This document shows positions 5,001 to 35,043 of a DNA stretch of 49,576 nt, one piece after another. Made by a program: the position numbers and the translations under genes. The stretch's first letter is position 1, and each line of letters starts with the position of its first letter. This DNA is from a virus. Lineage: Duplodnaviria > Caudoviricetes. A model generated the notes under the pieces. That model was not told the DNA's origin, searched no databases, and worked only from the letters and a program-made list of their open reading frames with translations. The DNA lies in IMG/VR virus record IMGVR_UViG_3300027007_000029, positions 1-49,576 of that record. One strand, written 5' to 3'.

Positions 5001-5502
5001 TGTAGTTTTTCTTATTGGCGATTTGAATGAGTTCTTGACGGAAACTGATCGGTGTTGGATCAACAGCTGTGTAGTCTAGGTAGTCGCCGCCGAGTTCGAT
5101 CCGGAGTACGGTCCAAGTAACGCCATCTGTGGCTATACCGTACTCTGAGCCCTGTGAAGCCGCCCGATTGTTCAGGTACTGTTCGATATCGTCTTCTGCT
5201 TCTTCCGATCCGTTTATCGATTTGTCCTCACCGATTACCTTTACGTCGAGATTGGTTATGCCGAAGTCTGGATAGCCTTCTCCGCCGCCGTGGATCTCTG
5301 GCTCCCATTCTAGACCTACTGCGTCGATAAGTGGACGGATCAAGTGGTGCCGAAGCCATGGTTCCGGCTGACTTCCGAGCTCTGCTGTAACCGGCCTGTA
5401 ATCACCTCTCAGAGTTCGTTCTAGTTTCTGAGGATCAAGTTTGCCGTGGAGATCATCAACGAAATCTTCTAGGATAGAACATATTTCACCTGAAGCCGAC
5501 AT
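2059..5502 (-). CDS. Type IIG restriction-modification enzyme (Eco57I-like; nuclease plus N6-adenine methyltransferase plus target recognition domain)
   Basis: N-terminal YPDF...EDK and ATDG (HsdR-N/PD-(D/E)XK); GAYYTP; DPACGSGHF (SAM binding); GVDVNP; FDIVVGNPPY. Confidence 0.92.
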   Translation of the reverse strand: MSASGEICSILEDFVDDLHGKLDPQKLERTLRGDYRPVTAELGSQPEPWLRHHLIRPLIDAVGLEWEPEIHGGGEGYPDFGITNLDVKVIGEDKSINGSEEAEDDIEQYLNNRAASQGSEYGIATDGVTWTVLRIELGGDYLDYTAVDPTPISFRQELIQIANKKNYITQSGISEVDVQAKAELFYETFNREDFNTLLTQEAPRIIRSKKKAGIEEFYDLYVELLFGEGSGSYSYDTTLLADIQAPEDATETDKRKFAIKLVNRLLFVKFLEGDVIPESFLNERVNNFQDAQNQVDRFGGGLYKSQLEPLFFSLFNTKENDRISKHRGDWFDEVPYLNGSLFAPEEQERGYDVDDRMLETVVQDLVEGHELSEDNGNHTLDPAVLGNVFEMTINHISGGQSQKKEGAYYTPSDVIRLITEQSVDPKIYEILVDTYSSRVAEASNMDEEQAQELVGDYDLGEMLREIEQRQGYFTDPDALEEAYDRLGELKIVDPACGSGHFLTAVLDEIHRVRMSLLRGMKGGDLDKKDVYSAKKDLVLNTIYGVDVNPIAIEIAKLRVWLKMVEEGWSEEFGRLPNIDVNIVPGNSLVGLPAISSGQSMLQAFDVDLSGIQDVRDQYREGKINRRELDMRIDDLRPEIRHFYAENLNHYFEDEVKTVEKFDGLTEDLESLYPVIDAARARRKDGANLSERDSEKLEGIGFTAYKKSGRLDGEDLRGKMDELRSLIEEGFKLELERRPTRYDLQELEEYGELSHEAFHWIVEFPEVVVKEGTEYSVDFDIVVGNPPYGDLVTGLERRFTAGYRTGDIRDIAAQFLERQLQLLGDGGVFGNVITLRLIYDSKAYVSRDILNKKLTDTQIACFGWRPSYIFAGSEALAAVITGQKAKEPDDDIRTSRFILFSDEDRKQRLENIDYCRIDDLVLGETIGGGSIGESSDKSMPKVGTETARTILEKLSEASDTTIRDKEVDQKTEHKVWRKEGARYWINPLLESLWSEEDRSRETKPMHFSSELERYATFLLMQSSLFYNHWMTYGDQQHVSWKLVRSFPFPDMGDLQENEEKIEDLTNKLWTGIEERFHPEINVSGEIQGVAELKPIVDQVDELFGPMFGLNEEEIEYVKQLDTEYGRSLRDEDQSQLPNEAVSRVELDD

Positions 5503-19151: not shown

Positions 19152-20120
19152 TCAGCGGTTGTGGATTTCTTGAAGGATCGTTTCTTCGCCCACCGCGTCG
19201 ATCATCTCGCTCGTCAGCGGCGAGTCGGCGTTGTCAGCCGTCTCGTAGAGCTGGTCGAGGATCGTCGCGTCGTCCTCCACGCCGAAGGTAGCCATCGCAC
19301 GGATGAATCCATCGACGGGGCCGGGGAGCGCGTCAGCGGTAGGCTCAGCGGCTTCCGCCGTGGTCGCCGTCACGGTTGCCCCACCGTCGGTCTCGACGCC
19401 GGGGGTCTGCTGGACGGGAGCGCCCACCGAGTTGTCCATCACGACCTGCGCTCCGGTAACGAGGTCGATCAGAACCGGATAGTGGAAGTCGTACTTGTCG
19501 CCCTCACGAATCTGCTTGAAGTACGCCACGTCCACCCCTTCGAGTTCTTCCCGAAGGGTGAGCGGGGTCGAAATCCAGTCCGTCAGCGTGTCCTCTTGGA
19601 GAACCGCCGCCTCGCCATGTTCGCTCAGGAGCTTCACGAGGCGCTTTGCCGACGAACTCGGCTTCTTCGCACCCTGTTCCCACATAATGATGTTGCCCAC
19701 CTCGTAGGCATCGTCAGACTCGACAAACTCGCCGTCGACGTAGACAGCGGTGGAGTCCGGTTCACCCGAGATCGGGTCGGACGACAGCGCCGCCGCAACA
19801 GGAGCGTAGTGGTACGTCTCGCGGAAGCTCTCGGAGTGACGCTCCGGAGCATCGAGCACGCCGAAGTCCTCGCCGTCGAGGAAGCCGAGCGCGTTCCACG
19901 AGAACAGCTTTACCTTTCCGGGCTTATCCTTCCGCTCCATCAGAACGCCATCCACGAGGGTTACGTCGTCCATCACGAAGCCGACGGACTGCCCGCCAGC
20001 GTTCCCGACCACCAGCCGCCCGACGTATCCACGGATCGTCGTCTCGGGGGTGATCGAGAAGTTAATGTCGTTGTATTCGTTGTCGTTACCACTCTGGCCG
20101 CCAAAGTTGTATTTGGACAT
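19152..20120 (-). CDS. Acidic protein, possibly ssDNA-binding; first gene of the replication operon
   Basis: 322 aa, beta-rich and acidic; function inferred only from position. Confidence 0.6.
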   Translation of the reverse strand: MSKYNFGGQSGNDNEYNDINFSITPETTIRGYVGRLVVGNAGGQSVGFVMDDVTLVDGVLMERKDKPGKVKLFSWNALGFLDGEDFGVLDAPERHSESFRETYHYAPVAAALSSDPISGEPDSTAVYVDGEFVESDDAYEVGNIIMWEQGAKKPSSSAKRLVKLLSEHGEAAVLQEDTLTDWISTPLTLREELEGVDVAYFKQIREGDKYDFHYPVLIDLVTGAQVVMDNSVGAPVQQTPGVETDGGATVTATTAEAAEPTADALPGPVDGFIRAMATFGVEDDATILDQLYETADNADSPLTSEMIDAVGEETILQEIHNR

Positions 20121-20271
20121 TGTTGTGTGATCTCCTATCGGAGAGAAGACGCCGCCAAAGAACGGCGGCTGAGAGAGACGGGCGTGGTCAGCGCCCGCAG
20201 AGTCGAGAAAGAACCGCAGACCGCAGACACAGAACGTAAAAACCGAGTCAACGCCCCCGTGGAGGGGGCAG

Positions 20272-20318
20272 AGCTACCCCGAGGAATCGAACCTCGGGTG
20301 GGGGAACCACCCGTAGCT
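20272..20318 (-). ncRNA. tRNA-like element A
   Basis: AGCTAC/GTAGCT stem, inner GGGTGG/CCACCC hairpin, CGAGG-TTCGATT-CCTCG T-arm; followed by a GCCCCC/GGGGGC hairpin (20253-20269). Confidence 0.65.
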
Positions 20319-20391
20319 ACCGAAGAACTATGCACAACCAAGAGCGGTCAATGAGCAATACTACTCGTCAGCGTTACGTGTCTCAGAACCC

Positions 20392-20446
20392 CGAAGCCCC
20401 GGAGGAATCGAACCTCCTTTCAGCACCAGCGGCGGATACGGCTTCG
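20392..20446 (-). ncRNA. tRNA-like element B
   Basis: CGAAGCC/GGCTTCG stem plus GGAGG-TTCGATT-CCTCC T-arm. Confidence 0.65.
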
Positions 20447-20558
20447 AGTGTTATTGGGGAAAGTTGAATTGGGGGTCAGGTTGGAGCGTGCGCCTGTGAT
20501 CGCACGTACCGACCGAACGGTGGACACCGAGGAGAAGTGACAACCTCGCGTCCACAGG

Positions 20559-20607
20559 GGCAAACGCTGGAGTCGAACCAGTCAGAGCGCCAAGTCGCTC
20601 CGCCGCC
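20559..20607 (-). ncRNA. tRNA-like element C
   Basis: GGCGGCG/CGTTTGCC stem, GAGCG/CGCTC hairpin, CTGG-TTCGACT-CCAG T-arm. Confidence 0.6.
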
Positions 20608-20630
20608 TTTTTGTCCTCACTATACTATTC

Positions 20631-20650
20631 GTTGGAAACATCTTAAAGAT
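20631..20650 (-). promoter_or_regulatory. Leftward promoter of the replication operon
   Basis: TTTAAG TATA box followed by TTCCAAC; same layout at 32661-32678. Confidence 0.6.
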
Positions 20651-20744
20651 TCCTCAAATCTGTCCGTCTGAGGAAACGGGAGTAGCATACTGCCCGCACC
20701 TTTATCCACTTCTGAAAGTGATTGGTAGCGTGGTATGCGGGTAA

Positions 20745-21326
20745 ATGACAGACAATAAACTTAGGCCGTACAAGATATGCCCGTTCTGCGGCGAGCGAGT
20801 ATTCGCCCGTGGGCTATATCTCCACGTTCTCAATACCCCCGACAAGGCACACGGCGGGGAAGACGCTGTTCCCGACGGGTTCAGCGCCAAAGACGTTGAA
20901 GACCAGGGAAAAGCGGCCAAAGATGTTACTGACACATCCGACAACCACGCCGATCTCAACGTAATGTGCAAGTTCTGCGGGGAAGTCTACCCCGACAAAG
21001 AAGAACTTGGGAAACACCTCTCGCTGATGAAACGGGTTGACGACCCGGTTCACCCGGAGAAAGCAACGCCGGACACCGCTGGATTAAGTGTCCCTGAGAA
21101 TACCTCTCCGGTTCGCAGATCGCCACGTTTCCAGGTCAGCGCCGATAATCCAATGGCGCAATTTCGCAGAGAACGCGCCGCAAGCCAGACTCCAGACGAG
21201 CTCAAATTTGTGCCACTTGAGGAGCTTCTGGAACTCAGAGATTGGGCACGGGAGCGAGAAGGGCAATCTGGAGCATACGTCAAGGTTGCCAGCAAACTGG
21301 ACGACCTCGTTGAAAAATACGGCTGA
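20745..21326 (+). CDS. Double C2H2-type zinc-finger protein, candidate regulator
   Basis: CPFC...LYLH...H and CKFC...LGKH...H; divergent from the replication operon. Confidence 0.7.
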   Translation: MTDNKLRPYKICPFCGERVFARGLYLHVLNTPDKAHGGEDAVPDGFSAKDVEDQGKAAKDVTDTSDNHADLNVMCKFCGEVYPDKEELGKHLSLMKRVDDPVHPEKATPDTAGLSVPENTSPVRRSPRFQVSADNPMAQFRRERAASQTPDELKFVPLEELLELRDWAREREGQSGAYVKVASKLDDLVEKYG

Positions 21327-21362
21327 CGTATGGCGGAAGGCGGCGACGATCAGAGGCCGCCG

Positions 21363-21836
21363 TCACACCCCTAATTGCTCCTTCAGCGTCTCGCTGTCGT
21401 AGTCCCTATTTTCAGTCCACGAGGAGAGCTGTTCAGCCAGCTCGATGATCTCCACGATTCCCTCGGCAGTCTCGTGTTCATCGTCTTCGAGAAGCGGGTA
21501 GATACCATCGAGAAACAGCTCCATATCCTGCGCTAAGGCCAGCGAATACGGGCCGATAATCTCGCAGATTCGAGCTATGTCGTCGCGTCGGGTGATCGTG
21601 ACGATGAAGTTCCCGGCGTCGGTCTCACGGACGTTCGAGTAGATGCTGTTTTGGATGCACCAGTCGTCGAAGAACGCCATCACGATCTCCCGGTTGATCC
21701 GCACTCGGAAGTCGGTGTGTATCCCGAATCCGTGGCGGGTCTGTTGGTTCTGTTGGGCGCTTACACTCAGGCTTCCTCGGGTGTCGAGGAGGCCGGCAAT
21801 GTAAGCGGTAGTCACCGCACTCTCGTCGTCTACCAT
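21363..21836 (-). CDS. LAGLIDADG-fold protein (single motif, probably catalytically degenerate)
   Basis: AYIAGLLDTRGSLSV followed by typical beta strands and IIGPY. Confidence 0.7.
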   Translation of the reverse strand: MVDDESAVTTAYIAGLLDTRGSLSVSAQQNQQTRHGFGIHTDFRVRINREIVMAFFDDWCIQNSIYSNVRETDAGNFIVTITRRDDIARICEIIGPYSLALAQDMELFLDGIYPLLEDDEHETAEGIVEIIELAEQLSSWTENRDYDSETLKEQLGV

Positions 21837-22105
21837 TGGTTGTCGTAACCATTTGAAGGGGGATATTTGTATCTTCATTGCTGTCTGTGCTACTATGATT
21901 CTCTCAGACGGACGAATTTTAGATAGCTTTATACAGTCTTAGAGCGTCTATTAGGTAGAGAACAACCGTGAGAGGGTTCTCTGTCTGATACCTCTGGTAG
22001 TAATCTATTCGTTAGACTACTCTCTCTAAGACTACTACCTATACTACTCTCAGTAGACTACACTCTAAGGAGACTACTCTCTAAGCAGACTACATTGGAG
22101 GAGAC

Positions 22106-22144
22106 ACCTTCCGCCCTATTACAGGAGGAGAGTAATCTCCTATA
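22106..22144 (+). repeat. 39-bp dispersed repeat, copy 1
   Basis: ACCTTCCGCCCTATTACAGGAGGAGAGTA[A/T]TCTCCTATA; 38/39 identical to 29481-29519. Confidence 0.9.
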
Positions 22145-22223
22145 ATATAGTATAGGTAGCAATCTCCTCGGCCTCGGTATTTCGACTGCATCCTCTCGAT
22201 TTGCGTTGTCTCCCCTATCTCCG

Positions 22224-22697
22224 ATGCCTTTCGACGAATTATCTGAAGAACCGTTAGTCTCGCCGGACACCAAGAACGCCACCAAGTTCCACCCGTCCGA
22301 AGCACCCGCTGAACAGGAAGCCTACTGGAAGCGCCTCGCCGGTTACAACTCTGGCGTCTACAACGGCTACTGGGAAGATTCGACTGAAATCCGACGCCTC
22401 GACAATCTCGGTGTCTTCGACGCAATCAGCTCGCAACTTGAGCTGACTCCATACCAGAAGCGAACGGGACGGATGCACTTTGACGAGCTGAATATCCGAG
22501 CGTTCGGCTACTCCGTTGAGCTGATCGTCTTTGCCGTTTGCGTTATCGTCACCGCCGAAGATGGTCGGCGCTACTCCCCGAGGGCCGCCCCCGAGAATAC
22601 CGACGCCGAGTTTGCCCGAATTGCTGACTCTCTCGATCTCCGCCCGAAGCTCATTGAGCGAGCAATCGGCGCAGTCCGAGGTGAGATTGATGCGTGA
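22224..22697 (+). CDS. Cyclin-fold / TFB-like protein
   Basis: FDAISSQLELT...FDEL...GYSVELIVFAVCVIVTAEDG resembles a TFIIB cyclin repeat. Confidence 0.5.
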   Translation: MPFDELSEEPLVSPDTKNATKFHPSEAPAEQEAYWKRLAGYNSGVYNGYWEDSTEIRRLDNLGVFDAISSQLELTPYQKRTGRMHFDELNIRAFGYSVELIVFAVCVIVTAEDGRRYSPRAAPENTDAEFARIADSLDLRPKLIERAIGAVRGEIDA

Positions 22698-23145
22698 GAC
22701 CGACTTCCGCATCATTACTGACACCAGAGAAAAGCTCCCTTACGACTTCGTGACCCACCGTGGCTCCATCAACCCCTCCGCCCTCGAAACCGGCGACTAC
22801 ACCATCGACGGATTCGAGGACGTATTCGCCGTTGAACGCAAGTCGCTGTCCGATCTTCTTCGGACGGTGACGTGGGGCCGTAAGAACTTCGAGGCCGAGC
22901 TGGATCGAGCCCAACACCTCGCTGAGTTTGTCGTCGTCATTGAGGCGTACCCCGACGATCTCAAAGATCACATCGAGGAATATGGGCGGAAGGTCCACCC
23001 CAATTCCATCTTCGGCTCGCTCAAAGCGTGGGAAGAATACCGGGGAATCCCGTTCCTCTGGTGTGGCTCCCGCGAGAACGCCGAACAGGTGACGCTCGAT
23101 CTTCTCACCGAGTGGCACGAGACCTACGGCGTTGAGCTCTCGTAG
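22690..23145 (+). CDS. ERCC4-domain (XPF/Mus81-like) nuclease, probable junction resolvase
   Basis: DTRE, GDY, VERKSLSDL, VVIE; start MRETDF overlaps the upstream gene. Confidence 0.88.
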   Translation: MRETDFRIITDTREKLPYDFVTHRGSINPSALETGDYTIDGFEDVFAVERKSLSDLLRTVTWGRKNFEAELDRAQHLAEFVVVIEAYPDDLKDHIEEYGRKVHPNSIFGSLKAWEEYRGIPFLWCGSRENAEQVTLDLLTEWHETYGVELS

Positions 23146-23294
23146 TCGTAATCGTTGAGAACCCGATTTTTCGCACACGACCGGCAGGCAAACGCTTTCC
23201 GCCCGCCGGAATCGTGCATACTCCACCCATCTTCTGTTTCATATAGTGGCATCCCGTTTAACCGAGGGCCACCGCAGAACGCACACGGAGTCAT
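23124..23294 (-). CDS. Small zinc-finger protein
   Basis: CAFCG...CRSC; TAATG coupling. Confidence 0.6.
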   Translation of the reverse strand: MTPCAFCGGPRLNGMPLYETEDGWSMHDSGGRKAFACRSCAKNRVLNDYDYESSTP

Positions 23295-23488
23295 TACTTC
23301 GTCCCAATCAGTCGGTTCGCTTTCTCTCTTGCTTCCTCGCTCATCGTGTAGTACGGGTGGCGACTGGCCCACACCCGCTCGATAAACTCGGTCCCGCAGG
23401 GATCGCAGAAGGCCAGCTCTTTTTCCTCGTCGACAATCACCGCTCTATCTCCACACGTCTTGCACCAGTCGAAGTTTAGGTCACTCAT
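23294..23488 (-). CDS. Small zinc-finger protein
   Basis: CKTCG...CDPCG. Confidence 0.6.
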   Translation of the reverse strand: MSDLNFDWCKTCGDRAVIVDEEKELAFCDPCGTEFIERVWASRHPYYTMSEEAREKANRLIGTK

Positions 23489-23511
23489 AATGCACCCCAC
23501 CAACGGGGCAG

Positions 23512-23559
23512 GCTCCCGGCGGCTGTCGAGACCGCTGGTGCGCTACGTGCGCCGGGAGC
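23512..23559 (-). ncRNA. tRNA-like element K
   Basis: Perfect 7-bp GCTCCCG/CGGGAGC stem, GCGGT-CTCGACA-GCCGC arm, then a CCCC/GGGG hairpin before the ATG. Confidence 0.55.
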
Positions 23560-23620
23560 GGAAGGGGAAGGAGGATGGATTGGCTACGAGCCGGAGGCCG
23601 TCACCGGGCCTCGTAGCGCC

Positions 23621-24862
23621 CTACTCAGCGTCGCCTTCCTCCATCGCCATCAGCAGGTTGTTAATGCGGTCCTCGCGGGCCTCGAACTCGGCCTTACGCT
23701 CGCGGAGGCTCTGGCTGTACCGTTCGACGGTCGCCAGCCCGCGTTTCTGGTTGAACGACAGTTCGCCCCCGTTCCGGACTTCAGCACGGCGACGCTCGCG
23801 CCGTTCGTACTCTGCCTCAATGACTTCCATCGTCTCGGCAGGGTTGTCGAGAATCCTCCGGGCCGTGAAGTAGTAGTCTTCGAGCTGGCCGTCCTCGGAC
23901 TTCCCGCGGAACGAGTGAGTCAGCGCGTAGGTCAGCCCGGAGTGAAGCACCCACTTATTCAGCCGGTTGCGAGACCCATCCTCGGTCTGCCCGCGAGCCT
24001 TCGCGTCCTGGGCCGCCGCGTTTGCCAGATACTCGGGAAGACCGAGTAACTGGTAATACTCGGAGACAGAGTACGGAAGCTCAGCGAAGTTCATCTCGAT
24101 TTCGAGGGCTTCGCTGATTAGCTCAAGCAGGTAGTCGCGGATCGCGCCCATCTGATCGAGCAGGTCCATAATCCAGCCGTGGTACTCCGAGGGCTTGCCG
24201 ACGTGTCGCCGGCTCATCTTTTCGGTCAGCGCCCGGAAGCTGTTATCGCATTGCGTGTCGTAGGCGAAGCCCCGAGCGTACAGCGACATTGAGCCGTCGA
24301 AGCTGTTGCCCGTCTGAATCCCCACGTAGAGCGGCTGGCGGCCTCCCGGCGGGTACACCAGCTCGTCGGTGAGGTAAATGTCGCCGTGGACCTTCCGCCC
24401 GTAGTCGTAGACACGGAACTCCCCGATAATCGCGTCGTTGAGATCAGCGTCCTCGAAGGCGTCGGCCCACGGAGACCACGCCTCAACGGGATTGATGATG
24501 GTGTACCGCTCACTCGATACGGCATACACCATCGCGTCGCCGTTCTCAACGTCTCCCGCCGTGAACGCCTCAGCGAGTTCCGGGTTGACGACCGCGTTCG
24601 CCGTGCTGATCGGGATGTTGTGTTCACGACCGGGGTTGAACGGGTTTGCCACCTCGATCTCGCTCGTGGTAGCCGTCGGGAGCTGGCGGATCGCGTCTGA
24701 GAAGGACAGCTCCGGGCGGTCGGTGAGATCGAGCTTCCCGAGGATGCTCTCGGGCATCTCCATCTGGAAGTTGTCGAAGGCCGTCACACCTGCGAAGGGG
24801 ATCGTGTAGTGTTCGTTCAGCGTTACACCGGCATCGCTCTCTGCGTCGTTGTGGTCACTCAT
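23621..24862 (-). CDS. DUF932-family phage/plasmid protein
   Basis: VSSERYTIINP, NSFDGS, QCDN; start moved to MSDHN, just downstream of CCTGAACCC. Confidence 0.75.
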   Translation of the reverse strand: MSDHNDAESDAGVTLNEHYTIPFAGVTAFDNFQMEMPESILGKLDLTDRPELSFSDAIRQLPTATTSEIEVANPFNPGREHNIPISTANAVVNPELAEAFTAGDVENGDAMVYAVSSERYTIINPVEAWSPWADAFEDADLNDAIIGEFRVYDYGRKVHGDIYLTDELVYPPGGRQPLYVGIQTGNSFDGSMSLYARGFAYDTQCDNSFRALTEKMSRRHVGKPSEYHGWIMDLLDQMGAIRDYLLELISEALEIEMNFAELPYSVSEYYQLLGLPEYLANAAAQDAKARGQTEDGSRNRLNKWVLHSGLTYALTHSFRGKSEDGQLEDYYFTARRILDNPAETMEVIEAEYERRERRRAEVRNGGELSFNQKRGLATVERYSQSLRERKAEFEAREDRINNLLMAMEEGDAE

Positions 24863-24902
24863 AGTTGGTTTCGGGTTCAGGTTCCCCCTACCGTCGGGGG
24901 AA

Positions 24903-24945
24903 AGCGTCGCCGGGGAGTTGCACCCCGAAACCGCTACTCGACGCT
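24903..24945 (-). ncRNA. tRNA-like element D
   Basis: AGCGTCG/CGACGCT stem, CGGGG-TGCAACT-CCCCG arm, then TTCCCCC/GGGGGAA hairpin and CCTGAACCC. Confidence 0.65.
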
Positions 24946-25039
24946 CAGCTACACAGCGCCCATCCACATCGGCAGTAAACGCACCCGCCTTCAGGGATCA
25001 GATGGGGATTCCTACACGACGGACACCGCTCAGGGATTC

Positions 25040-25147
25040 TCACGGGCACCCTCCAAGTCCGAAGACCGCCGAAACGTAGACGTACATCAAGACCACCGAG
25101 GCAATCCCGAGGGTCAGACCGATGTTGGTCACGTCGAAGGCGTCCAT
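25040..25147 (-). CDS. 35-aa single-TM peptide (not in ORF track)
   Basis: MDAFDVTNIGLTLGIASVVLMYVYVSAVFGLGGCP; TAATG coupling. Confidence 0.55.
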   Translation of the reverse strand: MDAFDVTNIGLTLGIASVVLMYVYVSAVFGLGGCP

Positions 25148-25515
25148 TAGTCGGCCTCGCGTTCGGGGTAACGCTCCATTAGCGCCTCCACTTCCGCCAT
25201 AATTCGGCGCTCAGCATCCTCCTGACTCGACTCGTCGGTGGGATCAAAGACTCGCATTACGCGGGTGGAGATTCGCTTCAGCTCGTTTATTTCGTCGTCG
25301 CGCTCCTCGCAGAGCGAAAGCACCGCGACGTGTTCTTTCGGCGGAAGGCCGGCGGTGTCGACGATCAGCTCGTAGAAGCGGTCGACGTGCTGGTTCGCCC
25401 ACACCCGCCGGGAAGCGGGATGGTGGTAGTAGCCACCCTTCGAGAGTGGCCGAGACACCTCGCCCACCGACCATCTCCAGCCGTTCGGAAGATCGGCGCT
25501 ACTACTACTACTCAT
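25147..25515 (-). CDS. Hypothetical protein (MSSSSSADLPNGW...)
   Basis: Start overlaps the upstream gene end. Confidence 0.6.
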   Translation of the reverse strand: MSSSSSADLPNGWRWSVGEVSRPLSKGGYYHHPASRRVWANQHVDRFYELIVDTAGLPPKEHVAVLSLCEERDDEINELKRISTRVMRVFDPTDESSQEDAERRIMAEVEALMERYPEREAD

Positions 25516-25795
25516 TTCGCACTTCCTGATCCGCCTTCTCCAGCCGCTCGATGGTCTCTTGAAGATTGGCGTCGAGTGCCCGAGCCGACTTCGCACCCGA
25601 ACACGCCAGCCGGGTAATCGCGGAGAGGTGGAGAATCGCCTGCCGAACTTTCGTATCCCGGTGCGTATCTCCGAGGGCGTACCGAGCTGATTCAGCGGCG
25701 TCGATGATGGTCTCAAACTCCGCCTCCATTTCTCCGACGTGGCGCTGTCTATCAATGCTCAGCTCGTCGGCCAGAATCCGGGGTTTGAAACTCAT
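25508..25795 (-). CDS. Helical hypothetical protein (MSFKPR...)
   Basis: Start reassigned from the ATGA overlap at 25792-25795. Confidence 0.6.
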   Translation of the reverse strand: MSFKPRILADELSIDRQRHVGEMEAEFETIIDAAESARYALGDTHRDTKVRQAILHLSAITRLACSGAKSARALDANLQETIERLEKADQEVRNE

Positions 25796-25929
25796 CGCGC
25801 CCTCCGCCCGCTCCCGTGATTCCGCGAGATTCGGAGCGCCGAGTGGTAGCGAGACGGCCAGTATTGGGTCGGGTAGAGGTTCTTCAGCGTGCTGTTCGTC
25901 ACCGATTGGTAGTTGGTCATTTTCCGCAT
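25792..25929 (-). CDS. 45-aa basic peptide (not in ORF track)
   Basis: ATG directly follows CCTGAACCCT; ATGA coupling to the next gene. Confidence 0.5.
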   Translation of the reverse strand: MRKMTNYQSVTNSTLKNLYPTQYWPSRYHSALRISRNHGSGRRAR

Positions 25930-25961
25930 AGGGTTCAGGTTTCAGCCCCCTTCCAGGGGCA

Positions 25962-26004
25962 ATCCGATTCGGGGAGTCGAACCCCGAGGTCGCCACTATC
26001 GGAT
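25962..26004 (-). ncRNA. tRNA-like element E
   Basis: ATCCGAT/ATCGGAT stem, CGGGG-TTCGACT-CCCCG arm, GCCCC/GGGGC hairpin, CCTGAACCC, ATG. Confidence 0.7.
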
Positions 26005-26024
26005 AGGTCGGTTGAGGGCCGAGA

Positions 26025-26297
26025 TCAGCAGGAAACTAATTCGACGCTGACAGCATCCCGATCAACGTTGTAATACTCAATCCCACCCGCTTCGAGCTGA
26101 GCGTTCGTTAGATTATGTGCCAACCCGAACGCCACAAACTCGTTCGGTGCGACAACTTGCTCAACGACTTCGAGAACACCGCGCTCGTCTAAGACCTCGA
26201 CGGAATTAGCGTGAAGTAACTCCTCTATCGCCGCATCCATATATTCAGGCAAAACGAACACGAGTACCCGCACCTCATAAATCGGATTCGACTTCAT
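26025..26297 (-). CDS. Hypothetical protein
   Basis: 90 aa, ATGA overlap. Confidence 0.55.
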   Translation of the reverse strand: MKSNPIYEVRVLVFVLPEYMDAAIEELLHANSVEVLDERGVLEVVEQVVAPNEFVAFGLAHNLTNAQLEAGGIEYYNVDRDAVSVELVSC

Positions 26298-26710
26298 AGG
26301 TGGTCAACCTCAAAGAGCGCACTTCCGAAGCCGTCGTTGTCGCCCGGATAGAACGACAGCGACCACCCCATCTCGTAGTAATCGGTGTCGTATTCCGGGG
26401 GGTGCCAGTACGATCCTCTCGATGTTCGGTAGGTCACGCCCACGTCGAAGCGCCCGAGGAACCGGATTCCCCATACGCGCTCTCTATCCGTGATAGTCTC
26501 GTAATTCTCGAAGTCGTCTCGGAGATCGTAGACCGGGGGGACGGATTCATTTTCGGCCCCATCGGGAAGCGCCAACTGAACGTCCTTGTTTCGCAGGACT
26601 TCGGGCGCGATTGAGAACGCCACGTCAGCGATGGTCTTCAGCGGGATTTCGACGGTCTCCACTTCGGTCTCAGATTCAGGCTCAGGTTCAGGGGTAGGGT
26701 CAGTTGTCAT
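26294..26710 (-). CDS. Hypothetical protein (MTTDPTPEPEP...)
   Basis: Acidic; start overlaps the upstream gene end. Confidence 0.6.
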   Translation of the reverse strand: MTTDPTPEPEPESETEVETVEIPLKTIADVAFSIAPEVLRNKDVQLALPDGAENESVPPVYDLRDDFENYETITDRERVWGIRFLGRFDVGVTYRTSRGSYWHPPEYDTDYYEMGWSLSFYPGDNDGFGSALFEVDHL

Positions 26711-26942
26711 TTTCAATTCCTCCAAAGAGGCGGAACCGCTCTCCGAGGAGCGGAAGTTCGTTGTCAGCCGGAATCCGAACGACACCAATAATGTCGTCGG
26801 GGCTAACGTACACGCCGCGGTCGCCGGACTGGATGTGAACGCGCTTCGGGCCGACCGAGCGCACGGTGCCTTCGGCCTCCTCGCCGTCGTAGCTGAATCG
26901 GACGAGAAGCCCTGGCTTCAGCTCAACGCGTTTCTCGGTCAT
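26700..26942 (-). CDS. Small SH3/KOW-like beta-barrel protein
   Basis: LKPGLLVRF...EGTVRSVGPKRVHI pattern. Confidence 0.55.
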   Translation of the reverse strand: MTEKRVELKPGLLVRFSYDGEEAEGTVRSVGPKRVHIQSGDRGVYVSPDDIIGVVRIPADNELPLLGERFRLFGGIENDN

Positions 26943-27373
26943 TTCAGCTCGGCCTCGGCCAGCGGGTCAATTAGGATGGTCGCGTTGCCAGCGATTACTC
27001 GGTCGCCTTCCTCCGTAACTACTCGAACGTCACACGAGTAATTCCCGCCGCCGAGATCGACGACGATCTCCGCGACGCCAGTCAGCAATTCACCGAACGG
27101 AACGGGCTTCAGGAAATCGAGTTGCTGATCGAGGAACACCACAACTGCGTCGCGGGTTCCGAATTTCGCCAGCGCCGCCGAGATCAGCGAACTGGTTAAC
27201 GCGCCGTGAACGATGTTCTCACCGAATCGAGAGCGCCGCCCGGTCGGAACGTGGAGGTGGAGTGGGTTACGGTCGCCGGAGAGATCAGCGAATAGCTGGA
27301 CTTCCGGTAGGTCGAATCGGGTGCTGTGGGTTCGGGTCTGTCCTTCTTCTAAGTGGTCTACTGCAAAGCTCAT
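26939..27373 (-). CDS. MaoC-family (hotdog) dehydratase
   Basis: FADLSGDRNPLH, FGENIVHG, FLKPVPFGE. Confidence 0.9.
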   Translation of the reverse strand: MSFAVDHLEEGQTRTHSTRFDLPEVQLFADLSGDRNPLHLHVPTGRRSRFGENIVHGALTSSLISAALAKFGTRDAVVVFLDQQLDFLKPVPFGELLTGVAEIVVDLGGGNYSCDVRVVTEEGDRVIAGNATILIDPLAEAELK

Positions 27374-27412
27374 TTTGGGTTCAGGTTTTAGGTCATTGGT
27401 CGACAGGCGGTA

Positions 27413-27658
27413 CTACTCGGCGTCCAAGTCGTCGACTCGTCGGATGTTCAGGTTGCGAACTCCGAGATCGACAGCCCGGACGGTGAATAAGTCGTGAGCA
27501 ATTTCGACGTGGCTTACCCCCTCGACTAATTCAGGATCAGTCAGCTCGCCAACGGTCAATCGCTCCGACGTATCCAGCGCAGTTGTCAAACACGACACCA
27601 CCAACGCAAGCGATTCGCGGTTGATGTGGGGGGAGTCGTGTTCTGGTACTCGACTCAT
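27413..27658 (-). CDS. Hypothetical protein
   Basis: 81 aa, acidic, downstream of element I. Confidence 0.6.
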   Translation of the reverse strand: MSRVPEHDSPHINRESLALVVSCLTTALDTSERLTVGELTDPELVEGVSHVEIAHDLFTVRAVDLGVRNLNIRRVDDLDAE

Positions 27659-27710
27659 AGCTGTGGGTTTATCTCATCCTCATTCCCCGGTTGATATTCG
27701 CGTGGGGAAA

Positions 27711-27752
27711 ATCGAGGCCGGGGCGCGACTCCCGGCGGTTACGCTACTCGAT
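27711..27752 (-). ncRNA. tRNA-like element I (variant loop)
   Basis: ATCGAG/CTCGAT stem, GCCGGG-AGTCGCGC-CCCGGC arm, TTCCCC/GGGGAA hairpin. Confidence 0.45.
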
Positions 27753-27771
27753 ACCGCCTCGAATTAGTCGC

Positions 27772-29100
27772 TTAGTCCCACCGTCGAACGCCGCCCTGCC
27801 GTTCCAGCGACGCGACTTCCCGACCGTGGGTAACGACGCGGTGCCACCGCTCGCGGAGGTTAATCATCGGGTGGTCGCCCCCGGTGTGGCGAACCGTACC
27901 CCGGATGTAGCCGCCGACCACGGTCTCACCATCGTCGTCGTAGATCGGAGCGAAGTCACGCGGAACGTGCCGCCCCAGGAGCGCCGACGCCGGGCTGTGA
28001 TTGAAGCCAAACGAGAGCGGGAGAATCCGCCCGTCAAAGTAGGTCACGCCGGTATCGGTGTCTCGAATCCCGAGGCCCGCCCCAACCTTCGTCGGCTCGT
28101 AGTTGCCCGCCGGGAAGCTCGCCGGGGCCTGTTCCACGTCGTCGACGGTCTCGGTGAGAACGCCCTTAGAGAGCGGCTTGAAGATAGGGACGTCTTCTGG
28201 CTCGAAATCCTCGTCCATCGGAATGAAGAACCACTCGCCCTGCCGGATAATTTGGTTGCCCCGGCGGAGCGCCCACAGCGATGGGCGACCTTCGTAGACA
28301 CTCATCCCCTCGGCCTCGGCTTCGCGCACTTCCGCTGGAGTCAGCAGATCGAGCGCATCATCCATCACGCGAATATTCTCCATTTCCTCGGGTTCGAGGC
28401 GGAAGGCGAACCGCCCGGTGTTTTCGCGGGTCACGTTCGCCGTCTTATCCCGACCGACGACGTAGCCGAAGCCCTGGGAAAACTCGACGAGCTTCACGCC
28501 GCTTCCCGCTCGAATCCCGACAATATCTTCGAGGCGTTCGCCGCGCTGGAGGAACCCATCGAGCGAGGTGAGCGGAAGTTCGCCGTGCGCTCGGGGAGCT
28601 GGCGACACGTAGGAGTAGAATCCCACCGCCCAATCCTCGTCGTTGTTAATCACGAGACCGTTGTGGGTGCGAATCGCCGCAATCGTCCGGTGGTGCATCA
28701 GCCGCCCGGAGCCGTCGACGTTCTGCCGCCCGGTCATCGACTGCCCAGAGTTCCACATCGCCGCGTTGTCGCCCCTCGTCATTTCGTGGGCCGGGAATTG
28801 CATATCGCGCCACGCCTTCGCCACGTCGGTCTGGCTGGAGTGAACCGCCTTCCCGGTCACTTCGTAGTCGGGGTGAATCAGCTTCCATCCGTAGGCCGTC
28901 TTTGCCCACTTGCGGTCGGGCTGAATGTCATCGAGCAGGGCGATTGCGTCGCCAATTCCCTCGGGAAGTTCGGCGGCGTAGAAGGCTTCGAGGTCTTCAG
29001 CAGTCGGAAGTTCGAGGCCGGAGAGATCGAGACGGATTTCCACGTCGTTGTTGGTCTGATTGTTGTCGTTGCCGTAGCTACCGCTGGTCTGGTCGTACAT
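27772..29100 (-). CDS. Viral hypothetical protein (RQGEWFF motif)
   Basis: 442 aa, acidic; preceded by element F and CCTGAACC. Confidence 0.75.
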   Translation of the reverse strand: MYDQTSGSYGNDNNQTNNDVEIRLDLSGLELPTAEDLEAFYAAELPEGIGDAIALLDDIQPDRKWAKTAYGWKLIHPDYEVTGKAVHSSQTDVAKAWRDMQFPAHEMTRGDNAAMWNSGQSMTGRQNVDGSGRLMHHRTIAAIRTHNGLVINNDEDWAVGFYSYVSPAPRAHGELPLTSLDGFLQRGERLEDIVGIRAGSGVKLVEFSQGFGYVVGRDKTANVTRENTGRFAFRLEPEEMENIRVMDDALDLLTPAEVREAEAEGMSVYEGRPSLWALRRGNQIIRQGEWFFIPMDEDFEPEDVPIFKPLSKGVLTETVDDVEQAPASFPAGNYEPTKVGAGLGIRDTDTGVTYFDGRILPLSFGFNHSPASALLGRHVPRDFAPIYDDDGETVVGGYIRGTVRHTGGDHPMINLRERWHRVVTHGREVASLERQGGVRRWD

Positions 29101-29183
29101 TTTGGTTTTCAGGTTCAGGTTTCAGCCGGCCACCCGAAGCCGGCGCTCGGTTCTCAATCCTTCCCCCTGCTTTTTCGGGGGAT

Positions 29184-29224
29184 GCGTCGTCGGGGAGTCG
29201 AACCCCTGTATTTCCACTCGACGC
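29184..29224 (-). ncRNA. tRNA-like element F
   Basis: GCGTCG/CGACGC stem, GGGG-TTCGACT-CCCC arm, TCCCCC/GGGGGA hairpin. Confidence 0.7.
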
Positions 29225-29239
29225 TATTTGCTTAATCGC

Positions 29240-29425
29240 TCAGTCCCACTCCGGTTCCTGAATTTCCACGATGCCTATCAGCCGGTCGGCAAAGTGGAGG
29301 AAATCTTCTCGGCGTTCGTCGTCGTCCCACGTCGAGATGTATTCCCGGTAGTCTTTCAGCACCGACAACAGCAGGTTGTATTCTTGCTGGTACTCTACGT
29401 CGATTACTATTGGGTAGGATTCCAT
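29240..29425 (-). CDS. Small acidic protein
   Basis: 61 aa. Confidence 0.55.
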   Translation of the reverse strand: MESYPIVIDVEYQQEYNLLLSVLKDYREYISTWDDDERREDFLHFADRLIGIVEIQEPEWD

Positions 29426-29480
29426 CTTAGGATTCTCTATCAGTAGGAGACTCTAATGAGGAGACTCCGTGGTAGGAGAG

Positions 29481-29519
29481 ACCTTCCGCCCTATTACAGG
29501 AGGAGAGTATTCTCCTATA
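29481..29519 (+). repeat. 39-bp dispersed repeat, copy 2
   Basis: 38/39 identical to 22106-22144. Confidence 0.9.
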
Positions 29520-29537
29520 TACTATACAGCTATACTA

Positions 29538-29693
29538 CTACAACGCCGAATTGAGCGAGATTAATTCGCCCTCGTAAATCAGGTACGCCGTTGCGGGACG
29601 AGCGCTGTCGTATAGAATCGTTTTCTCGTTCGTCAACGGCTTCGAGCTGATCGGCGTCGGTTCATCAGTTGGATTGTCGGGATTAGGTTGCAT
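29538..29693 (-). CDS. 51-aa hypothetical protein (not in ORF track)
   Basis: MQPNPDNPTDEP...ILYDSARPATAYLIYEG; overlaps the upstream gene end. Confidence 0.5.
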   Translation of the reverse strand: MQPNPDNPTDEPTPISSKPLTNEKTILYDSARPATAYLIYEGELISLNSAL

Positions 29694-29925
29694 TGTCGCT
29701 TTCTCCGAGGTACATCGCTGAACGCCCGTCTTTCAGGGAATAGATTTGCCAGACATAGATCGCCCCCCGAGAATCTTTGACTCGCTCCATCAGGGAGAAC
29801 GGCATATCCGCATACTCCCCTTCAACGAGGAGGAGATTCTTGTAGCGGTCGTCGTATTCCATCCGGCGAATCCGCGAGCTGTCCTCGAAGGATTCAACCA
29901 GCTCATTGAGGAGTTTGCGCCCCAT
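29683..29925 (-). CDS. Hypothetical protein
   Basis: TGATG coupling. Confidence 0.6.
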   Translation of the reverse strand: MGRKLLNELVESFEDSSRIRRMEYDDRYKNLLLVEGEYADMPFSLMERVKDSRGAIYVWQIYSLKDGRSAMYLGESDNAT

Positions 29926-30314
29926 CAGATCATCACCTCAGCGTCGTCGTCGAGATCGGGGAAATCCAGCCGGACTTGAATCGTTCCGGTGTCTTCGTGG
30001 AAGTAGCGAATGAACAGATCGCCCACCGTGAATCCGGTCTCAGCGGCGGCGGCGAGGAAGTGGAACGCCGACGTATTTCGCCCGTTGAGATACAGGTGAA
30101 TCCGAGCGTTGTGATCGTTCTCGGGATTGCACAGCATTACCGCTCCCTGATCGGCGTATTCCGCGCCGTCGTCGGGGGTGATCGGGTTGACCGTATCCTC
30201 GAATTGATCGAGAACAGTCACATCGAGGTCGCGGTTGTCGAAAGCTTCCAGAAGGTTCCAGAAGATTTGTCGTCGCGTCTTTTCGCCGTCGTTCATCGTG
30301 GTCGTGGTCGTCAT
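29925..30314 (-). CDS. Hypothetical protein
   Basis: Acidic; CCTGAACCC upstream. Confidence 0.7.
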   Translation of the reverse strand: MTTTTTMNDGEKTRRQIFWNLLEAFDNRDLDVTVLDQFEDTVNPITPDDGAEYADQGAVMLCNPENDHNARIHLYLNGRNTSAFHFLAAAAETGFTVGDLFIRYFHEDTGTIQVRLDFPDLDDDAEVMI

Positions 30315-30357
30315 TTTTGGGTTCAGGTTTCGGTGTTGGTCGTGATTTCAGCTCGAT

Positions 30358-30738
30358 TCAGTAGTCGTCGAACAGCTCGAAGTCCTCGATCTCCTCGGAG
30401 TCCTGAATTTCCTCAACGTGGAGGCCGATTTCAACCTCGGGGAAATCCATCAGGCCGACAGAGCCGTGAACAAACGAGGCGTCGGTCACGATCTCCTCGA
30501 TTGAGAGACCCTGATCTCGGAGGTACGCGATTGTCCCCGGCAATTCACAGTCCGGTAGGCCGTCGACGCCGAAGGATTCAGCCCAATTCGAGGCGTCGTA
30601 TTCCAGAACGCGCCGGGCAAATTCGGAATCGGTAGCCACCAGCTCGAAGAAGTCGCGGGCGGTGAGCGTCCCGCCGAAGATTTCAGAGGAGTATTCAGCC
30701 GTCGGTTCCACAGGTTCGGTGGTAGGCTCGGTTGCCAT
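30358..30738 (-). CDS. Very acidic hypothetical protein
   Basis: 126 aa, D/E-rich; follows element G. Confidence 0.7.
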   Translation of the reverse strand: MATEPTTEPVEPTAEYSSEIFGGTLTARDFFELVATDSEFARRVLEYDASNWAESFGVDGLPDCELPGTIAYLRDQGLSIEEIVTDASFVHGSVGLMDFPEVEIGLHVEEIQDSEEIEDFELFDDY

Positions 30739-30767
30739 CTTCTATTCCTTCCCCCATTTGGGGGAGG

Positions 30768-30828
30768 CCCCGCGGCGGGAGTCGAACCCGCCGAGTTACA
30801 ACCGGCTCCTGATATTTCGGAACCGGGG
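30768..30828 (-). ncRNA. tRNA-like element G
   Basis: GGCGGG-TTCGACT-CCCGCC arm inside CCCCG/CGGGG, then TCCCCC/GGGGGA hairpin. Confidence 0.6.
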
Positions 30829-30912
30829 AGTTCCTTTCGGGGCAGAGTTTCCTTTCGGGCACTCAACCAATCACAAACGTCGACCGAAGTCGCTGGCCTG
30901 ATTTCAGGCCAA

Positions 30913-30954
30913 GCCCCGACCGGGGTGTGAATCCCGGCGGTCACTTATCGGGGC
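30913..30954 (-). ncRNA. tRNA-like element J (variant loop)
   Basis: GCCCCGA/TCGGGGC stem, CCGGG-ATTCACAC-CCCGG arm, then GGCCTGA/TCAGGCC hairpin. Confidence 0.5.
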
Positions 30955-30978
30955 AAAATCCGGTGGAAGCGCGGTTGT

Positions 30979-31128
30979 CTATCGGAGCCAGCCCGGATCG
31001 GAATGGGCTTTGTCCTGCTTGTCGTAGAACGCTTCCGCGATTGCCAGCTCAGCCTCGTGCTGGAGGGTCCACGTCATTTCTTCGCCGTAAATCGCCTTCG
31101 CGTCAGCCGCTTCAATTTCGTAGCTCAT
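30979..31128 (-). CDS. 49-aa acidic protein (not in ORF track)
   Basis: MSYEIEAADAKAIYGEEMTW...; CCTGAACCC at 31137-31145. Confidence 0.6.
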   Translation of the reverse strand: MSYEIEAADAKAIYGEEMTWTLQHEAELAIAEAFYDKQDKAHSDPGWLR

Positions 31129-31177
31129 TGGTCTAAGGGTTCAGGTGTATCGTTGATCGTTGGTTGTCGGTCGGTTC

Positions 31178-31987
31178 TTATTCGAGGTTCTTCAGGGCTT
31201 CAGCGGCCATCTTGATCGCTTCGGCGGCGGCGCTGATCGCCTCGGCCTTCGCCATTTCGGCGTCGGTGGTTCCGGTGGTCGTGTCGGTCGTCTTGGGTTC
31301 AGAGGTAGGTTCGGGTTCCGGTTCCGGCTCAGGTTCCGCGAACATCATTTCGTCGGTCTCGATTTCGGCCTGCTGTTGGTGGCGGAGGCAGAAGCCGTGG
31401 TCTTTGGCTTCGGCGGTGCAGGGTGCGCCGGCCTTCTTGCCTGATAGGTACAAGCCGTTGCAGGTGTCGGCGGGTTCCGGTTCGGGTTCGGCGACGGGTT
31501 CCGCCGGAGTTTCACCGAGGATTTCGTCTTTCAGGAGCTTTGGCAGTTTGAAGTCAGCCCCGACGAACAGCCGGTCGGAGTATTGATCCGTGATTCCGAG
31601 CGCCCTGATTTCGTCGTCGGTGATTTCGCGGGCTTTGATCGTCGTCGGGACGGGGTGGGCCAACTTGTAGGTCCGAAGGTCACCCTGATTCAGCGCCCTG
31701 AAGTCGTCTTGGATTTCGCGCTTTGCCCGCCGGGTTCGCATCGCCAGCCGTCCGACTTGCTGTTTCGCGCCCTTTCCGTCGACCGACTTCGCCAGCCGGT
31801 TTAGGAGCCACTCAGTACCGCACACGACATTGTATGCGTCGCCAGCCGAGACAGGTTCGGGGAATTTGGCCCGAGCGTTTTTGAGCTGGATTTCTTCGCG
31901 GGTTTGTTCGTCGTGGATGGTCGGGGAAGTCGCGGGTTCGGTGTTCTCAGGTGATTCAACAGCCAGCAGGGTGTCGTATTTGCTCAT
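31178..31987 (-). CDS. First early gene: protein with a CCCH zinc finger and PE-rich linkers
   Basis: CNG...GAPC...FCLRH; start moved to MSKYD because the longer frame runs through element H. Confidence 0.7.
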   Translation of the reverse strand: MSKYDTLLAVESPENTEPATSPTIHDEQTREEIQLKNARAKFPEPVSAGDAYNVVCGTEWLLNRLAKSVDGKGAKQQVGRLAMRTRRAKREIQDDFRALNQGDLRTYKLAHPVPTTIKAREITDDEIRALGITDQYSDRLFVGADFKLPKLLKDEILGETPAEPVAEPEPEPADTCNGLYLSGKKAGAPCTAEAKDHGFCLRHQQQAEIETDEMMFAEPEPEPEPEPTSEPKTTDTTTGTTDAEMAKAEAISAAAEAIKMAAEALKNLE

Positions 31988-32052
31988 AGCAGTCACTTTT
32001 GGGTGGTCGTTCGGTCGGTACGTCGGTCGTTTCCCCTGATTTTTCGGGGAAG

Positions 32053-32094
32053 GCCCGCCGGGGGAATTGAACCCCCGCAAGTCCAAACGCGGGC
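32053..32094 (-). ncRNA. tRNA-like element H
   Basis: GCCCGC/GCGGGC stem, CGGGGG-TTCAATT-CCCCCG arm, TTCCCC/GGGGAA hairpin. Confidence 0.7.
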
Positions 32095-32660
32095 TTATCC
32101 AGCCAGTCTCGAATTGGGATATGTGGTCGTCAAAGGCATATCCCACCGGGGCGCGGCGCTTTGATTATAGCGGTTCGCTAATCGCGGGTTTAGCTTCGCG
32201 TTAGGCTTTACGTCGCGTGGTACACTTCCCGTCGCCCGTTCGACTTCCCCGGTTTCTACCCGGTTTCACGTCGCGGCGCTTTTTGGGAATCACTCACGCG
32301 CCCGGTGGTCGATCCCACCGTCGCCCGTCCTAATGCTGATTTAACTCACTTCCGGGGGCTTTGTATCGCCCGTCCGGTCGCAAGAAATCGCCCGCTTTGG
32401 CGTATGTAGGCTCGGCGTATTCCAGCCGTTTTGTCCCTGAAATCCCCGACGCCCGTTGCGCCGATCCTTTCAGGCTTACTTCCCCGCCCGTCCTACGCGG
32501 GGGTTTTCTTTGGGGGGCTTTTCACCCCAAAGGTCACTCCGATTTGCCCGGTCGTCGTCGGGGGTGCCACCCCCGCCCGAGTTTCCCGAGCAACCGTTCT
32601 CCCGCGGGGGCCTCGTCCGGTAAAGTCAACCGTTGCCCCCGAGGGGATAGCTGAACAGAT

Positions 32661-32680
32661 GTTGGAAGATAATATAAACG
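32661..32680 (-). promoter_or_regulatory. Leftward early promoter
   Basis: TTTATA followed by TTCCAAC, as at 20631-20650. Confidence 0.6.
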
Positions 32681-34388: not shown

Positions 34389-35043
34389 GTGCTTGGAAAT
34401 TTCTATAGTTGCAGAATTTGACAATATTGTTCGGCTGCGCGTGAGATCGGATTTTGGCGTCGGGTCGAAAACTGCTATATAAACTTGACTATTTTCAGCA
34501 CTTCAGATACCGATAATAAGCTATTTAGTATATAAAGGCGGCTGAGATATATAAACCGTTGTGTATTAGTAGGGGTAGGAGTGAAGAAGTTGGCCCTCCG
34601 GGTTAACACCTCGACTCCACTCCCCTCTGACCTTTCCTAAATCGCCGTGATCGAGTTCCTCCATTAGTTGAGATAAAACCGTTACCGGATTTAGGAGACA
34701 GACTTTGAGCTGACACAAGTCGGGTCAGAGAACGCGAGTAACTGTGAGGCGCTTCCGCCTTAATCTCCTACAATACTCTCCTAAAGAGTGTTCTCGGATT
34801 AGAGTGGAAGCTCCGAGTTCTACCTATCGTAAGTCAGCCCTATATTATAGGTAGAAGGTTCGTCGACCGGCTATTCTTTTTGCTGATCGAGCTGTTGCTC
34901 GCGGTCTCTTTCACCTCTCTTTCTCACATTTTGCGGTCTCGGTTTCGGTTCTCTGGTCTAATCTGGTTCACTCTGGCGCTCTCTGCGCCCTCTCTGGTCT
35001 CACATTCAATCAACCGCCGTTGAGCGGTTTTTCACTACTCAAT

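Follow-up and report, generated by a model that had tools for sequence, protein, structure and literature searches.

Results

Candidate t-elements in the early region

The DNA analysed here (the window) is a complete virus record of 49.6 kb (IMG/VR IMGVR_UViG_3300027007_000029) that encodes an integrase, PolB, terminase, portal and capsid proteins. Its terminase shared 54% identity with the HRTV-27 protein, and the 53 phage records matching this terminase were without exception haloviruses, those inspected being Hafunaviridae; the window virus is a Hafunaviridae-like halovirus. The early and middle genes lie on the minus strand, as do eleven short intergenic elements between 20272 and 32094, which an earlier reading of the sequence (the original prediction) had described as tRNA-like signals for host enzymes. 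All eleven sites were present. We put the probability at about 0.7 that these elements are viral copies of the t-element located 5’ to haloarchaeal 5S rRNA, and that they would serve as tRNase Z punctuation of viral mRNA.

The elements share a layout consisting of a 12-13-bp stack of acceptor and T-arm, and a short linker, which in the main subtype contains a GG resembling that of a D-loop; a discriminator base comes next, then usually a U and usually a hairpin. A descriptor combining T-loop, T-stem and acceptor matched seven times within 20.0-32.3 kb, compared with a mean of 0.25 (maximum 2) in 200 dinucleotide shuffles, and six times versus 0.02 when the downstream hairpin was demanded. A subtype with an 8-nt loop was found twice in the window (30913 and 27711) versus 0.04 in shuffles. 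The common fold proposed for all copies was recovered as the local minimum-energy fold for eight of the eleven (32053, 30913, 30768, 29184, 27711, 25962, 24903, and 20272), but not for 23512, 20559, and 20392. Acceptor and T-arm were present as described, but they stack to 12-13 bp with a T-stem of usually 6 bp instead of 4-6; the T-loop held for the main subtype, but not for 30913 and 27711, whose 8-nt loops are non-canonical; and no strong downstream hairpin was present at 20392. The absence of an anticodon arm was borne out, in that ARAGORN found 0 tRNA genes and Rfam no family in the window, and a tRNA gene was rejected as a candidate. A covariance model recovered eight of the eleven at E<0.05, four of these eight being training sequences; 27711 scored poorly (E 1.1), 20559 was matched by its T-loop alone (E 2.2), and 23512 was missed. 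The longest complement to the elements was 9-11 bases, giving no indication of an antisense role, and folding energy showed no strand preference.

In the direction of transcription, all on the minus strand, the first element behind a long leader (32053..32094; descriptor, covariance model, and fold) has a 6-bp acceptor, a 6-bp T-stem, an 11-nt linker with GG, and a hairpin at 32031-32051; both stems are kept in the relative L002. It is followed by an 8-nt-loop copy of 7+5 bp (30913..30954; covariance model, subtype scan, and fold) whose hairpin (30894-30911) begins at the predicted cut; no substitution was among those listed for 30905-30946 in contigs covering it, and the flanks were variable. 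The long element at 30767..30843 (77 nt; fold) combines a 6-bp acceptor, an internal hairpin and a 7-bp T-stem with a downstream hairpin at 30750-30765, and carried pair-keeping changes at 30807 and 30822 in contigs of all four sequencing runs compared. Descriptor, covariance model and fold agreed on 29184..29224 (acceptor of 6 bp, two mismatches in the T-stem, hairpin at 29162-29182, before a 442-aa gene), 25962..26004 (7+6 bp, hairpin at about 25945-25960), and 24903..24945 (7+6 bp, variant T-loop, hairpin 24882-24902, before the gene ending at 23621). The second 8-nt-loop copy, 27711..27752 (6+6 bp, hairpin 27683-27709), was found by subtype scan and fold and was weak under the 7-nt-loop model. 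A doubtful element at 23512..23559, read from the sequence, has an 8-bp outer stem, a degenerate T-loop and a hairpin at about 23491-23510.

The last three form a trio at 20.2-20.6 kb that belongs to a unit of its own, preceded by an AT-rich promoter-like site (20641..20646, minus strand; read from the sequence and syntenic with intergenic repeat 3, IR3, of HF2), and two of the three copies are not immediately before a gene. The copy at 20272..20318 (6+7 bp, hairpin 20253-20269) was recovered by descriptor, fold, and the covariance model (E 5e-4, outside the training set). That at 20392..20445 (descriptor; covariance model E 0.006) is weak, lacks a strong downstream hairpin, and is likely a decayed tRNA; that at 20559..20607 (read from the sequence and in the T-arm collection) is also weak, with a bulged acceptor, a D-arm-like hairpin and a T-arm. 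The gene downstream of the trio (19152..20120, minus strand) is homologous (28% across 199 aa, E 9e-15) to HF2 HrrHF2_270, which in HF2 is preceded by IR3, tRNA-Asn, and tRNA-Tyr. Relatives have a tRNA cluster at this position, and the trio is likely a reduced form of it.

The original prediction placed all copies on one long early transcript. This did not hold, because the region is divided by TATA-like sites at 32678, 29521, and 21933, by the AT-rich site at 20646, and by genes on the plus strand between 20.7 and 22.7 kb, and the window has at least two transcription units. No TATA-like site was found within 50 bases upstream of the four window elements scored. Promoter-type intergenic repeats, as in HF2 or as the promoter-early stem-loops (PeSLs) of T4, were rejected as an identity for the elements, which carry no conserved promoter motif per copy, and a scan for bacterial sigma-70 promoters remained at chance level.

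Recurrence and covariation in other viruses

The same design occurred six times in HRTV-27, twice in HF2, and also in HRTV-25, HSTV-2 and many metagenomic relatives. Model R1, a covariance model trained on 25 copies, all of them viral, gave matches in 9 of 15 virus records, which beyond four Hafunaviridae included HCTV-2, HHTV-2, HRTV-4, and HFTV1; its three matches in HGTV-1 were all tRNA halves, as was one match in HF2. Nothing was matched at E<=0.01 in HVTV-1, HHTV-1, phiCh1, BJ1, Hardycor1, and HSTV-1. The search of haloviral genomes that had been suggested as a check therefore found the elements in further haloviruses. The design recurs across three virus families, and the 8-nt-loop subtype in L046, HRTV-4, and HFTV1.

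To avoid circularity, all T-arm hairpins of 40 loci were collected (145, of which 52 lay inside ARAGORN tRNAs). Sixty of the 93 non-tRNA hairpins had an acceptor of at least 5 bp at a linker of 7-18 bases, whereas 11.9 were expected from shuffled upstream sequence. The acceptor/T-arm stack measured 11-13 bp in 58 of these 60 viral elements, and none encoded CCA. GG was present at linker positions 3-5 in 40 (12.5 expected), the base after the predicted cut was U in 55, and a helix of at least 5 bp started within -1 to +3 of that cut in 38, versus 9.6 in shuffles and 15 of the 52 full tRNAs. At two orthologous sites of the haloferacalesviruses HF2, HRTV-8, VOLN27B, and HJTV-2, two-sided changes affected one acceptor pair and four hairpin pairs; a predicted 2-pair linker helix was also variable there. 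In alignment A2, pairing was 86%, a value reached by 0 of 500 shuffles, although its pair counts are partly circular (rows were chosen by pairing) and our conclusions rest on the other tests.

In L021 and L022 a mini element occupies the tRNA-Arg position of the relatives L017 and L023, and thus a single site can hold either a full tRNA or a mini element. Serpecor1 and HRTV-8 have been reported to carry a partial tRNA-Arg that lacks 28 nt (PMC7230728); it is one such mini element.

Several side observations concern these copies. In proviruses L057, L059, and L060 a hammerhead-like core motif directly followed the mini element, with an Rfam type II hammerhead about 0.8-1 kb downstream; HF2 and HRTV-25 also have hammerheads in the early region. 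Single element-plus-hairpin matches were found in phage-like contigs unrelated to Hafunaviridae (L013 9807-9848, L006 10023-10061, and L016 2359-2404; the L013 terminase is PBSX-type), and the design may extend beyond haloarchaea.

The viral model finds the host 5S rRNA t-element

When 101 haloarchaeal genomes were searched with model R1, 50 had a match at E<=1e-4, and the best score on a host 5S rRNA leader element was 44.6 bits. Of the 30 loci returned, 17 were 5S rRNA leaders (12 identified by Rfam, 5 by downstream sequence) and 13 lay before protein genes. In all 13 5S loci scanned with Rfam (12 of the returned loci plus L062), the match to the 5S model began either at the predicted cut, which lies 14 bases past the T-loop, or at the next base. 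Cleavage of the haloarchaeal t-element by tRNase Z creates the 5’ end of 5S rRNA (Hoelzle et al. 2008, cited in PMC4326828 and PMC7714728), and a crRNA flanked by t-elements is freed in vivo through RNase P and tRNase Z (PMC4326828; PMC7714728 agrees). Since most of the viral elements have a U and a helix start at the 5S register, the viral hairpin takes the place of 5S helix I. The viral-only model thus recovered the host t-element in register, which supported the proposal of t-element-like signals for host tRNA enzymes with hairpin-protected 5’ ends. As a separate observation, 5S rRNA genes were in tandem in L070, L074, L075, L076, and L077, with one t-element per copy in L070, L074, and L077.

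The viral and 5S elements, both found by one sequence-structure model, are alike in size, in an acceptor and 6-bp T-stem stacked to 12, in a linker of about 10 nt with GG, in A.C often being the outermost pair, and, as predicted for the viral copies, in a product that would open with U right before a helix. They differ in that the viral copies stand before protein genes, many per genome, with a dedicated hairpin for 5S helix I, and include the 8-nt-loop and long subtypes.

Elements also preceded host SipW-type and Taf-like pilin genes (L063, L066, L068, L078, L083, L093, L095, and L096), where a C-rich hairpin and a motif resembling a ribosome-binding site were often present; in G001, three elements with C-rich hairpins stood before tandem SipW-type signal-peptide genes. 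Three of the five proteins tested from behind host elements matched cognate_SipW above the cut-off, and two matched TafE/TafA below it. At L072 only one or two bases separate the predicted cut from the start codon, so that cutting would yield a leaderless mRNA. The accessible part of the tafi paper (PMC11821415) makes no mention of such an element. Four plasmids (Haloferax volcanii pHV1, pHV3, and pHV4, and Halobacterium pNRC200) gave one weak match (E 0.04, poor fold), and the supplement of PMC8303175 lists no processing site at its position.

RNA data from HFTV1 and HF2

HFTV1 has five elements, three with 7-nt and two with 8-nt loops, versus 0.08 and 0.01 in shuffles. Each belongs to one of two early clusters. 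Four occupy the gaps that precede gp46b, gp46, gp63, and the open reading frames (ORFs) leading to gp64; the remaining one overlaps a small ORF. In PMC12542753, Table S2 gives 35 sense transcription start sites, defined as coverage jumps in ordinary RNA-seq; they include gp46a, gp46b, gp46, gp62, gp63, and gp64, and in each cluster the later genes share the timing of the first. Among these six genes, only gp46a and gp62 had the AT-rich promoter motif in the 75 bases upstream. Each of the four element-filled gaps therefore precedes a gene with an RNA-seq 5’ spike and without a visible TATA box, a pattern that fits processing, as circumstantial evidence. In a ribosome-profiling preprint on HFTV1 (10.64898/2026.09.13.751334), ribosomes exceeded RNA on gp07, gp46b, and gp62, and two of these three genes border an element. 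In HF2, Northern bands were mostly 1-2.5 kb and RT-PCR products were long, and the authors suggested processing (PMC8707807).

Discussion

Structure, register, conservation and placement of the elements were seen directly, and we infer cleavage because the 5S register fits the viral elements. We propose that host tRNase Z would cut viral transcripts directly behind each element, after the discriminator and 13 bases past the T-loop, and that the downstream mRNA would open with U and a base-paired 5’ end, or would be nearly leaderless. The hairpin may shield the new 5’ monophosphate end from 5’-3’ decay, while the element would stay on the upstream mRNA and form its structured 3’ end unless RNase P removed it. 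Polycistronic early transcripts could in this way give mRNAs that decay and are initiated separately, without extra promoters. The use of RNase P, also part of the original prediction, fared less well: the U-1/G+1 bias expected for this enzyme was absent from the 60 elements (-1: T20 A19 C14 G7; +1: G25 A23 T8 C4), and its involvement is plausible solely from the behaviour of the host element (PMC4326828).

A number of points weigh against tRNase Z punctuation. In the window, 23512, 20559, and 20392 take other minimum-energy folds in their local context, and the 8-nt-loop subtype has neither a canonical T-loop nor the GG. Further predicted tRNA-like elements of Haloferax were reportedly left uncut in vitro by Hoelzle et al. 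in 2012. The 60 elements are non-independent (orthologous copies) and include a few doubtful rows, and a TATA-like site stands upstream of seven of them. For HFTV1, the spike table is without coordinates and its base rate is 35 of about 80 ORFs, ordinary RNA-seq cannot separate primary from processed 5’ ends, and the matching of gp46a and gp46b to ORFs is our own inference. The HF2 5’ end mapped by primer extension, T-4384, was assigned by its authors to a promoter (PMC8707807) and lies inside an element (4375-4414), off the predicted 4416.

That HF2 end would suit a different explanation, in which element and hairpin stay uncut and act as a structured block to exonucleases or as a modulator of polymerase (a terminator or a put-like antiterminator), the ends arising by trimming or termination. 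Two adjacent stable helices, and the location of 14 of the 60 elements within 20 bases of an upstream stop codon, would also agree with it. However, such a block leaves the 12-bp ruler, the T-loop, the GG and the U at the 5S register unexplained; no U-run follows the hairpins, and terminator-like sites numbered 16 versus 16.5 in shuffles. We consider it unlikely, though the strongest of the alternatives.

The main product could instead be the freed 40-nt mini-tRNA, a decoy that would engage either host tRNA-end enzymes or defence toxins directed at the acceptor end. An anticodon-less minihelix present in several copies early in infection has the right shape for this, and the trio has its own promoter-like site, with two of its copies not directly before a gene. 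However, both the conserved U and the hairpin that covaries are on the mRNA side and not in the element itself, the sequence bias expected for RNase P was not seen, and a decoy makes no sense before host pilin-type genes and 5S rRNA, where the same element occurs. The release of tRNA-mimic decoys, envisaged in the original prediction, was unsupported, and we regard a decoy as the main product as improbable.

About as little credit can be given to a role at the DNA level, in which the elements would be cassette borders (compare T4 PeSLs and integron attC sites) promoting exchange of early genes. The window encodes an integrase, and three joints in relatives’ contigs end inside elements (24927, 26002, and 29223). 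However, these are 3 of the 36 ends of 18 joints listed out of 23, and swaps are expected at gene gaps anyway; sequence that diverges while pairing stays is unfavourable to homologous recombination, and the T-loop and 5S register are features of RNA. Cassette exchange may be a side effect.

An origin as non-functional relics of tRNA genes or integration sites is just as improbable for the set as a whole: the trio sits at the HF2 tRNA-Asn/tRNA-Tyr position, the published partial tRNA-Arg is such an element (PMC7230728), and three window copies fold poorly, but attachment-site remnants retain the 3’ half only whereas here the 5’ acceptor strand is retained, paired and covarying, and one design occurs in three virus families. 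A relic reading could apply to 20392 and 20559 only. A phage attachment-site (attP) remnant was rejected on the paired 5’ acceptor strand and on the distance of the integrase gene (window 1-1137), at least 19 kb from the elements.

Punctuation by tRNA-like structures has parallels elsewhere. In mitochondria, such structures guide RNase Z and RNase P and set mRNA ends. In phage T7, which has terminal repeats, the early polycistron is cut by RNase III; the proposed likeness is that of a virus with terminal repeats, a host RNA-maturation nuclease and structured intergenic signals, and the difference is RNase III with long double-stranded RNA stems versus a tRNA mimic in a halovirus. The mascRNA of MALAT1 and the C4 and CI RNAs of phages P1 and P4 are tRNA-like, lack anticodon function, and are processed by RNase P or Z; like the viral elements, they are modules of longer transcripts, but they are free functional small RNAs or set a 3’ end, whereas the viral elements have no Rfam family and no long antisense complement. 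Plant mitochondrial t-elements are tRNA-like cis signals (Forner et al. 2007, PMC1920247), and with mitochondrial tRNA punctuation they share the role of setting mRNA ends through RNase Z and RNase P; the mitochondrial systems differ in being organellar and mostly tRNA-sized, the viral elements being minimal (40 nt), in an archaeal virus, and dependent on host enzymes. T4-type PeSL cassettes (PMC2839356, PMC4122927) and HF2 intergenic repeats (PMC8707807) are likewise repeated intergenic modules in a variable early region, but they are described as promoters of conserved sequence, whereas the viral elements conserve structure and 53 of 60 are without an upstream TATA-like site. We found no description of such elements in archaeal viruses or mRNAs in the literature covered, which did not extend to subscription journals. 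The viral elements have the structure of the 5S type and would be expected to work like 5S and plant mitochondrial t-elements, with cleavage as a prediction.

Few archaeal ribonucleases, to our knowledge, have known mRNA substrates. If the proposal is true, tRNase Z would mature mRNA as well as being a factor that the host supplies to infection, and the elements are natural compact parts for multi-gene expression in haloarchaea. The proposal bears on how the short RNAs of Northern blots arise from long halovirus transcripts, and makes a single-base prediction in a tractable system, HFTV1 and Haloferax gibbonsii, with public RNA-seq. We lean slightly towards a wider form of it, with odds a little above even: haloarchaea and their tailed viruses may share a general tRNase Z punctuation code for mRNA, in which a 40-nt t-element would give hairpin-capped or nearly leaderless monocistronic mRNAs. 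A genome of the Hafunaviridae would use this code as many as twelve times, and it would also be used in Saparoviridae, Haloferuviridae, and host SipW-/Taf-type pilin clusters; it would alternate with full tRNAs, pair with hammerhead ribozymes, and explain some 5’ ends annotated as transcription starts.

Other features of the early region

The likely early promoter is the TATA-like site at 32673..32678 (minus strand), whose layout is shared with HRTV-27 and HF2. Behind it, a structured non-coding leader of about 560 nt (32095..32652, minus strand; fold z -3.3) ends at the first element and is 88% identical in L002. Structured leaders of 570 and 1400 nt occupy the corresponding place in HRTV-27 and HF2 (L001 34740-35320 and L017 550-1960). 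Homology of the window leader to that of HRTV-27 was rejected, the 41% identity lying inside the shuffled range of 40-49%, with no detectable similarity; Rfam has no family for the long leaders of the early unit. These leaders are candidate large viral non-coding RNAs. The early region had no blastn match in phage records, and a helicase-like protein used as a single query gave no matching locus among viral or genome contigs.

Three related AT-rich intergenic stretches (at about 29430-29540, 21990-22160, and 34740-34860) resemble the promoter-bearing intergenic repeats of HF2. The 7-mer CCTGAAC occurs 18 times on the minus strand (4495 to 33877) and once on the plus strand, often just before start codons, and is possibly a translation signal. 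A MaoC-like dehydratase gene (26939-27373) lies within the early region, and a low-GC gene adjoining the integrase (2059-5502) encodes a 1147-aa Eco57I-type restriction-modification protein.

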